Assembly: GCA_963674755.2 (NCBI GenBank)
Contig: CAXXVS010000002.1
Location: 896,001 to 960,000 of the forward strand
Reading direction: 5' to 3'
DNA: 64,000 nucleotides
Source of the DNA: Desulfobacterales bacterium
GTDB lineage: Bacteria; Desulfobacterota; Desulfobacteria; Desulfobacterales; UBA5852
Each line of letters begins with the position of its first letter. Within the stretch, counting starts at the first letter, position 1. The notes below the pieces were generated by a model. That model searched no databases, was not told the origin of the DNA, and saw only the letters and a list, made by a program, of their open reading frames with translations. This document shows, in pieces, positions 9,335 to 35,562 of the stretch. The position numbers and the translations under genes are program-made.

Positions 9335-9422
9335 GCCCGGGTGGCGGAATAGGTAGACGCAAGGGACTTAAAATCCCTCGGTGTAATACACCGTGCCGGT
9401 TCGATTCCGGCCCCGGGCACCA
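9335..9422 (+). tRNA. tRNA-Leu (anticodon TAA)
   Basis: Acceptor stem GCCCGGG/CCCGGGC plus ACCA end; anticodon arm AGGGA-CTTAAAA-TCCCT; long variable arm; GGTTCGATTCC T-arm. Confidence 0.97.
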
Positions 9423-10053: not shown

Positions 10054-10076
10054 AAAAAGGCGGGCTGCTTGCCCGC
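10054..10076 (-). terminator. Intrinsic terminator (minus strand)
   Basis: Minus strand GCGGGC-AAGCA-GCCCGC-CTTTTT. Confidence 0.55.
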
Positions 10077-10146: not shown

Positions 10147-10292
10147 GGAGGGGGCAAGACCCGATGTCTTGCCCCCGACGAAAGGAGTTGGAATGGAATC
10201 CGTTGACGGCAATCGAGGGATCGTGAACTTCAAAAGCGCTCAGGGTTGATAGGCCAGGTCTGTAGGCGGTCGATCCCTGATTGCCACTTGAC
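10147..10292 (-). ncRNA. Candidate sigma54-dependent small RNA (about 145 nt; may extend to the terminator at 10054)
   Basis: Starts 12 nt after a sigma54 -12 box; 15-bp stem GGCAATC-AGGGATCG/CGATCCCT-C-GATTGCC; C/U-rich linker TTCCATTCCAACTCCTTTC; 11-bp GC hairpin at 10150-10176; no plausible ORF on this strand. Confidence 0.62.
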
Positions 10293-10303
10293 GCGGATTA
10301 ATA

Positions 10304-10318
10304 GCAATCCCTGTGCCA
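10304..10318 (-). promoter_or_regulatory. sigma54 (-24/-12) promoter
   Basis: TGGCACAGGGATTGC matches TGGCAC-N5-TTGC. Confidence 0.85.
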
Positions 10319-10390
10319 GAACGCCCCTCGACGATTTAGGCTAAAATAACAGTAGGATGGAATTTTTCAGATAATTGGATCAATACCTGT

Positions 10391-10428
10391 TTGACAGGAT
10401 CTGTCAGTCGCAATGCCGTAAATTGTCA
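10391..10428. promoter_or_regulatory. Tandem upstream activator site for a sigma54 enhancer-binding protein
   Basis: TTGACAGGATCTGTCAG-tcgca-ATGCCGTaaattGTCA; closely similar site at 35525-35562 at the same distance from its promoter. Confidence 0.72.
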
Positions 10429-35063: not shown

Positions 35064-35318
35064 TTATGCTGCGGAAGACGACCAGGCGCCCGCGACGCTG
35101 CTCACGACAAAAGGCTCGGCATCGTGAATGGCCGTCGAATAATGTTTGCATACCGGGCAGAATTTGCGGGGCATGCCGCGGCCGGTCCATAAAAGCTTAA
35201 CGCGGTGATGGGTTCCACACTTCGGGCAAACGCATTCCGTCGATGTCTCGCGCAAACAGACAGCCTGGATGGATTCAATTCTTTTTTCGTCGTCGCTCTT
35301 TCCCGTTTCCTCTCTCAT
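35064..35318 (-). CDS. Small zinc-ribbon protein (CPKC...CPVC)
   Basis: RBS GGAG 9 nt before ATG; ECVCPKCGTHH...WTGRG.PRKFCPVC; lies downstream of a sigma54 promoter. Confidence 0.7.
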   Translation of the reverse strand: MREETGKSDDEKRIESIQAVCLRETSTECVCPKCGTHHRVKLLWTGRGMPRKFCPVCKHYSTAIHDAEPFVVSSVAGAWSSSAA

Positions 35319-35340
35319 TGTCCGTTCTCCATTTAAGAAT

Positions 35341-35426
35341 TGGGATCGAGGGGTTGTGGGCGTGGATAACCGGTCAAAATCGTCAGGCAGTAGGATGTTC
35401 CGTTACCCCTGTGATTGCCATTGGTT
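35341..35426 (-). ncRNA. Structured leader RNA related to the candidate sRNA at 10147-10292
   Basis: TGGCAATCA at +7; AGGGGT/ACCCCT and ATC/GAT pairing over about 80 nt; shared CCTAC..CCTG, TTTTGA and CCCTCGAT. Confidence 0.55.
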
Positions 35427-35437
35427 AAACAATATAA

Positions 35438-35452
35438 GCAATTCTAATGCCA
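35438..35452 (-). promoter_or_regulatory. sigma54 (-24/-12) promoter
   Basis: TGGCATTAGAATTGC. Confidence 0.82.
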
Positions 35453-35524
35453 TATTATCTAAGTCTAATTTTCTACATAATACCGGACAGACACGGACGG
35501 GAGAAATCGAAAGACCCTATCGGC

Positions 35525-35562
35525 TTGACGGGATTTGTCAGGCTATATGCCGTTATACGTCA
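35525..35562. promoter_or_regulatory. Tandem upstream activator site (second copy)
   Basis: TTGACGGGATTTGTCAG-gctat-ATGCCGTtatacGTCA. Confidence 0.72.

Follow-up and report, generated by a model that had tools for sequence, protein, structure and literature searches.

A sigma54-driven, multi-copy small RNA family with an exposed anti-Shine-Dalgarno linker in Desulfobacterales and its probable link to PilR

The window, a 64,000-nt stretch of DNA from a Desulfobacterales bacterium, contains an intergenic region with a convergent DUF202 gene on one side and a divergent IclR gene on the other, in which a sigma54-type promoter on the minus strand precedes two hairpins. This raises the question of whether the locus is an RNA gene and, if so, what activates it and what its product acts upon. 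The sequence-only reading had proposed a sigma54-driven structured RNA exposing a linker complementary to the Shine-Dalgarno (SD) sequence. The elements of the locus are as follows.

10392..10428, minus strand: double palindromic enhancer, likely PilR boxes (TGAC-N7-GGCA at 10428-10414 and TGAC-N7-GTCA at 10406-10392)
10341..10353, minus strand: IHF-like motif between enhancer and promoter, with a presumed role
10303..10318, minus strand: sigma54 -24/-12 promoter (TGGCAC-N5-TTGC at 10318-10304), with the predicted +1 at about 10292
10208..10285, minus strand: SL1, a 14-bp interrupted 5′ stem closing a variable loop of about 45 nt, supported by covariation
10177..10207, minus strand: CU-rich single-stranded linker, the predicted seed, conserved in orthologues
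10187-10180, minus strand: anti-SD CUCCUUUC within the linker, from the sequence
10195-10193, minus strand: anti-AUG (CAU) within the linker, from the sequence
10150..10176, minus strand: SL2, an 11-bp GC hairpin without a U-tract and the likely mature 3′ end, supported by covariation, with conservation stopping past it
10054..10076, minus strand: intrinsic-terminator-like hairpin with a U-tail, the end of a predicted 239-nt primary transcript

The sequence agreed with the earlier description of SL2 as a perfect GC hairpin lacking a U-tract, since the minus strand forms a perfect 11-bp stem with a 5-nt loop, followed by CUCCCC. The 146-nt RNA had a minimum free energy (MFE) of −58.2 kcal/mol (z = −4.63), and none of 200 shuffled sequences was equally stable upon folding. 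The seed between the 5′ stem and the hairpin was mostly single-stranded, with a mean unpaired probability of 0.79 over 10198-10180 and, in the MFE structure, a weak stem of 3 bp at the 5′ edge. Its complement is indeed a ribosome-binding site with a start codon, but the spacing is GAAAGGAG-N5-AUG, with the ATG at 10193, and not the N6 given originally. The U-tail of the terminator at 10054-10076 is present on the minus strand only, the strand of the sRNA, from which a primary transcript of 239 nt was predicted, close to the earlier figure of about 240 nt; this terminator was not kept in the closest orthologue. No RNA run was listed as containing the stretch, which speaks neither for nor against expression; three runs of unrecorded kind that contain the contig confirm only the existence of the DNA, one of them with strain differences outside 10147-10292.

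Relatives of the sRNA were found by BLAST in 6 of 12 genomes of the same genus and in none of 48 others. A covariance model detected the family in 10 of the 12 same-genus genomes, with several copies each, and weakly in two of three sister-genus genomes, while stricter filters left only two borderline matches among 147 other genomes of the order. Genome G000 had four related loci, and the gene neighbourhoods of the copies were unrelated, varying by locus. In a metagenome scan, a pattern restricted to a single enhancer box, the promoter and 7 stem nucleotides brought up at least 80 loci (81 matches), with a second box in 53, the SL1-closing strand in 54 and SL2 in 42, these counts being based on simple patterns with some false positives. 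Removal of duplicates resulted in 69 members, of which 54 were full copies containing SL1, linker and SL2. A pattern search of a genome collection gave 24 loci, six of them in deltaproteobacterial or Desulfobacterales records and the other 18 probably due to chance. The plasmid search and the viral contig search (0 contigs) returned no match to the element. Rfam gave no match over 10147-10292 at E ≤ 5, and a single sub-threshold match, outside the element, for six homologous loci.

Both stems covaried. In a MAFFT alignment of 37 of the 51 extracted copies, from which near-duplicates and copies with hard-to-align SL2 were left out, double changes occurred in 13 of 25 pairs and 97% of cells were paired, a result reached by none of 500 shuffles, with slid controls showing 41-57% pairing. 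SL1 had 98.8% of cells paired with double changes in 6 of 14 pairs, and SL2 had double changes in 7 of 11. A model-fitted alignment of the 54 matches gave 18 of 25 pairs with double changes, although such an alignment leans to the model. The G-U pairs fit the minus strand. The SL1 loop was the most variable part, and no consensus fold was found for it in the family alignment.

By contrast with the SL1 loop, whose identity to three orthologues was 0.86, 0.68 and 0.66, the linker was among the best-kept parts (0.97, 0.94 and 0.90). The sigma54 site was 94-100% identical in the same orthologues, and identity past SL2 dropped to 0.56-0.60. Across the 54 copies, the linker contained on average 9.6% G and 78% C+U, and the anti-SD was present in 50. 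The complement of SD plus AUG was found in 28 of 54 copies versus 11.8% of shuffled linkers, an enrichment that is overstated since the copies are related by descent and the counts are not independent. The anti-SD part of the proposed seed thus holds throughout most of the family, whereas the anti-AUG, missing in 26 of 54, is common and not universal. Beyond CU-richness, linker sequences diverged between subfamilies. With promoter, both stems and CU-rich linker recurring in 54 non-redundant copies, the proposal of a structured RNA gene stands, and we consider it very likely that the sRNA is a real, conserved, multi-copy non-coding RNA gene.

Several observations concern the surroundings of the copies. 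A tRNA-Leu gene (TAA anticodon) is located at 9335-9419 on the plus strand of the window, 730 nt from the sRNA, and in the metagenome copy L209 a tRNA-like 3′ fragment interrupts the element at SL2, which hints at a position of some copies at the borders of islands. Directly upstream, at about 10642-10570 on the minus strand, there is a second candidate sRNA with a 5′ hairpin, a CU-rich linker and a strong U-tailed terminator, preceded by a sigma70-like promoter at 10677-10649. Its terminator and CU-rich tract, not its body, are kept in G004, and CU-rich tracts with terminators also occur upstream of several homologues of the sRNA family.

The regions past SL2 differed among the 54 copies: a U-tract followed in 2, a terminator at 226-260 nt from the start in 12, an open reading frame (ORF) in 12 and neither in 25, while 3 had too little flank. 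The parts of the sRNA also occur separately. A minimal sibling at G000:C2:1719916-1719972 (L077), about 57 nt long and with its own sigma54 promoter, consists only of linker, hairpin and U-tail, and its seed had no mismatch in any of the seven genomes, out of 17 with the family, that hold it. Conversely, a Zn-ribbon gene is preceded by SL1 alone, in many cases decayed, as in the window at 35064-35562.

35319..35562, minus strand: paralogous cassette with the same double box and sigma54 promoter and a degenerate SL1 as 5′ leader (nhmmer E 1.5e-24)
35064..35318, minus strand: gene of an 84-aa Zn-ribbon-like protein behind this leader (50 homologues, mostly unnamed)

The 84-aa protein matched no Pfam family above the cut-off. 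Since the 57-nt sibling comprises only linker and SL2, and SL1 alone leads the Zn-ribbon gene, we infer that linker plus SL2 is the acting module and SL1 a 5′ stabiliser. In the tandem cassettes L212 and L213, an sRNA copy is followed at once by a second enhancer-promoter unit, which in L213 leads into the Zn-ribbon gene. In the sister genus, G014:C7:145836-146068 (L071) and G016:C452 (L060) contain tandem units of a CU-rich tract and a GGGGCAAGG hairpin, which lack a sigma54 site and may represent arrayed, related sRNAs.

Folding with the 3′ extension reduced seed accessibility from 0.75-0.98 to 0.21-0.62 in all seven siblings given the extension, but not in the window copy (0.79 vs 0.74). 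Because the long form masks the seed in these siblings, trimming of the 239-nt transcript to SL2 (about 146 nt) is plausible, with the reservation that the window copy behaves differently. The drop in identity past SL2 and the rarity of U-tracts there also fit the 3′ processing suggested by the sequence-only reading.

The ORFs behind some copies allow the element to be read as a cis-acting 5′ leader in which the linker masks the ribosome-binding site of the downstream gene, the window copy being a vestige whose gene has been lost. Twelve of 54 copies precede an ORF encoding either a 33-41-aa peptide with a hydrophobic C-terminus or a protein of about 126 aa, as seen behind L004, L251, L252, L255, L269; L055, L201, L203, L224, L226 and L234. 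In 6 of 10 ORF-bearing folds, the seed paired with the SD by at least 4.6 expected base pairs; SL1 also leads the Zn-ribbon gene, and past SL2 an ORF-bearing copy looks like the copies without an ORF, a likeness that suggests gene loss. Judging by a short stretch common to both, the peptide may have arisen by erosion of the larger protein, for which the one copy examined had no Pfam match. However, the seeds had no preference for their own downstream SD in a 10×10 matrix, 39 of 51 copies with enough flank lacked such an ORF, and neither ORF family was found in G000. The three orthologues have no downstream ORF, yet their linkers are among the best-kept segments, and the minimal sibling ends in a U-tail and has an invariant seed. 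Consequently, we regard the cis-acting leader as an unlikely explanation of the window copy, and favour an sRNA pairing in trans.

What such an sRNA might pair with was addressed by duplex energy over 5591 self-called genes of G000, a calculation that did not include target accessibility. No credible target emerged, as 7 of 23 shuffled seeds did as well as or better than the top match at −32.5 kcal/mol. The 60-aa ORF before copA, the top match in G000, was rejected since its pairing is lost in G004 (from about −36 to −22 kcal/mol), as was a CoA-disulfide-reductase-like gene with a site in G000 and G004, for which G005 has only a 35% homologue. Among 26 pattern loci examined in G004 and G005, genes that we take to be atpB, a MaoC-like gene and a CysZ-like gene kept moderate sites, none of them decisive, and a search with the pattern SD+ATGAARCGTT yielded scattered genes only. 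The genes pilA, pilT, pilU, divIVA, yggT and ccdA were not predicted as targets, with pilA, pilT and pilU ranking poorly. The seed may act on many mRNAs, or the method may have missed the target.

The 57-nt sibling L077 was predicted to pair at 16 of 17 nt with the ribosome-binding site of both tuf copies of G000, ranking in the top 15 for both, and the energies for all four tuf copies of G005 and G001 fell within the top 0.3% of G000 energies. As the leaders of tuf genes are conserved in any case, this pairing is only a lead. Another candidate target of this sibling, the Zn-ribbon gene in the pilT operon, was dismissed, having a match in two of six genomes only.

Searches in which the positive controls were detected found Hfq in 0 of 21 genomes and ProQ and CsrA each in 0 of 5. 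The long unpaired CU-rich seed would suit chaperone-free pairing. The failure of a specific target to emerge also fits a PilR-driven non-coding RNA that uses SL1 or the pyrimidine tract to bind a protein, as a scaffold or sponge, rather than pairing with mRNA, and so does the conservation of the stem sequences in addition to their pairing. On the other hand, SL1 contributes the most variable loop of the RNA and is dispensed with in the minimal sibling, the complement of ribosome-binding site plus AUG is enriched in the linkers as given above, and the alignment lacks the repeated GGA loops which, together with CsrA, would mark a Csr/Rsm sponge. A protein-binding role therefore appears improbable, and we judge repression by trans pairing at ribosome-binding sites, a prediction from the seed model, to be reasonably likely.

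The promoter region indicates how the gene may be controlled. Two palindromes of the type TGAC-N7-G(T/G)CA were located 73-76 nt upstream of the sigma54 site in 20 of 20 homologous loci, 10 of which had been found by the RNA body alone. A count of 63 of 68 members with the double box is partly circular and carries no weight here. The motif YWGWWAT was present in 47 of the 68 members, as opposed to 1.6% of genomic 30-mers taken at random, and the example at 10341..10353 is a putative IHF-like site. The double-box pattern occurred 2-5 times in each of five genomes, with no occurrence of the reversed control. Eight sigma54 promoters of G000 carry the boxes, four belonging to the sRNA family and one to a type IV pilin gene. 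The same double box was present upstream of pilA in G000, G004, G010 and G001, 10 of the 29 pilin loci considered in the order had at least one box no more than 600 nt away, and the metagenome pattern also matched three pilin promoters from other taxa. In G000, an NtrC-type gene at C2:1218185-1219579, close homologues of which were named PilR by JGI, is immediately followed by the boxes of pilA. Since the same double box lies between the PilR-named activator gene and pilA, the sRNA family is probably a branch of the PilR regulon, and control by PilR is a likely reading of the promoter sequences.

In the portions of the literature compared, PilR activates pilA from a sigma54 promoter (PMC6211767, PMC6058289), and the hallmark of Pseudomonas aeruginosa PilR is given as TGT-N11-AGA, which is not the form of the palindrome seen here (PMC6058289). 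In our own reading, the junction of the two boxes would have the same N11 spacing. Motifs for PilR of Geobacter and D. vulgaris may be given in figures or supplements outside the literature compared.

Further occurrences of the double box in G000 were noted at C3:653770-655202, the promoter of ccdA/DsbD and thioredoxin, divergent from a yggT-divIVA-pilT-pilU operon and conserved in five relatives, and at C3:1695764-1699392, an HTH / Zn-ribbon-HAMP / phosphonate-binding operon; both promoters are likely further members of the PilR regulon. The pilA leader itself (G000:C2:~1217792-1217675; also L314, L321 and L322) is a conserved structured 5′ UTR of about 120 nt with a long closing stem, which is followed by GUCAAC, the same hexamer that follows SL1 of the sRNA.

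The trans-acting sRNA could instead be switched on by another sigma54 enhancer-binding protein that recognises a similar palindrome. The paralogue at G000:C2:1807072 has another NtrC-type gene as its immediate upstream neighbour, an arrangement like that of Pxr and Dv_sRNA2, and the distance from box to promoter is 108-109 nt at pilA versus 73-76 nt at the sRNAs. However, this NtrC-type protein is 35% identical to PilR, the activator near a copy in G001 is likewise distant from PilR (38%), and the boxes are of the same form as those directly behind pilR, which makes a different activator doubtful. The paralogue in question, G000:C2:1807206-1807355 (L063), is of full length, and its 3′ extension folds back on the seed.

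The idea that the plus-strand 18-codon ORF (10193-10249) is the functional element, or that the sRNA is a cis-antisense antitoxin to it, is very improbable in spite of its strong ribosome-binding site and AUG in the window copy and three orthologues, as 26 of 54 copies lack a counterpart, those that exist vary between 2 and 39 codons and are unrelated in sequence, the peptide has no hydrophobic character, and the conserved promoter and G-U pairs indicate the minus strand. Conservation of an ORF was seen on neither strand of the element. A type I toxin-antitoxin system was rejected likewise, because the antisense ORFs are not conserved and the 41-aa peptide behind some copies was not found in G000.

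The PilR-linked sRNA can be compared with four known systems. The Qrr1-5 RNAs of Vibrio are sibling sRNAs under one sigma54 activator that repress by pairing with ribosome-binding sites, but they need Hfq and end in U-tailed terminators, whereas neither Hfq nor ProQ was found in the genomes searched here and a U-tract directly past SL2 is confined to the two copies mentioned. According to the sections compared, the deltaproteobacterial Pxr of Myxococcus xanthus is a stem-loop RNA with a sigma54 promoter, an upstream enhancer for an NtrC-type activator, paralogues, and longer precursors processed by the exonuclease RNase D (PMC5684412, PMC10217877, PMC5568312). The window sRNA shares the promoter, enhancer, stem-loops and paralogues, with a longer precursor that is predicted only. 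Pxr has its own regulatory genes, pxrR/pxrK, as neighbours and works by means of the SL1 loop, while the window sRNA probably has PilR as a distant activator and conserves an anti-SD linker between its stems; it also matched no Rfam family, Pxr included. Its architecture resembles that of CJnc230/FlmE of Campylobacter jejuni as outlined in PMC11187230, where FlmE is cut from the flgE mRNA and is flagellar, in contrast to the multi-copy, type IV pilus-linked sRNA with its own enhancer-dependent promoter. Dv_sRNA2 of the sulfate reducer Desulfovibrio vulgaris is reported in the part of PMC3333781 compared as a target of the response regulator DVU0679 and lies directly downstream of its own regulator; the probable activator here, PilR, is distant, and this comparison is by description, not by sequence. 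The family most likely works in the manner of Pxr, Qrr or FlmE without belonging to any of them, and represents an RNA family that was not previously described. In titles and abstract openings of the open-access literature, neither an sRNA under the PilR response regulator nor an sRNA family from Desulfobacterales came up. Sigma54-driven anti-RBS sRNAs are already known; what sets this family apart is the probable control by PilR, which is a new regulator link, its modular copies and host genomes in which searches for Hfq, ProQ and CsrA gave nothing.

Taken as a whole, the mechanism would begin with PilR binding the double enhancer, whereupon sigma54 polymerase would transcribe the stand-alone sRNA gene. 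Shortening of the 239-nt transcript at its 3′ end would stop at the stable SL2 hairpin, with SL1 serving as the 5′ stabiliser and linker plus SL2 as the acting part. The exposed CU-rich linker would then pair in trans across the SD and start codon of mRNAs, blocking translation, and this pairing would proceed without Hfq or ProQ. We give this complete scheme of a PilR-activated, trans-acting anti-RBS sRNA a little better than an even chance. A far more tentative proposal, which we hold to be rather unlikely as it stands, is that PilR has a post-transcriptional arm consisting of a modular, still-expanding, chaperone-free sRNA family that arose from the 5′ leaders of PilR-dependent mRNAs, mimics the anti-SD and covers the SD and start codon of many mRNAs. 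All stages would then be visible, from leader with gene, leader with eroded gene and free sRNA to the minimal 57-nt sRNA, the latter acting on both tuf ribosome-binding sites.

The weight of the family is limited by its narrow range, which is essentially one genus, by relatives derived from MAGs and by the lack of a target. If the L077-tuf pairing is true, it would link the capacity for translation to the sensing of pili or surfaces. If the scheme is confirmed, it would add an RNA output to the PilSR pilus-sensing system, yield a PilR box usable for this order, provide a model of multi-copy riboregulation in genomes that gave no match to Hfq, ProQ or CsrA, and offer a natural series for the birth of an sRNA from an mRNA leader.
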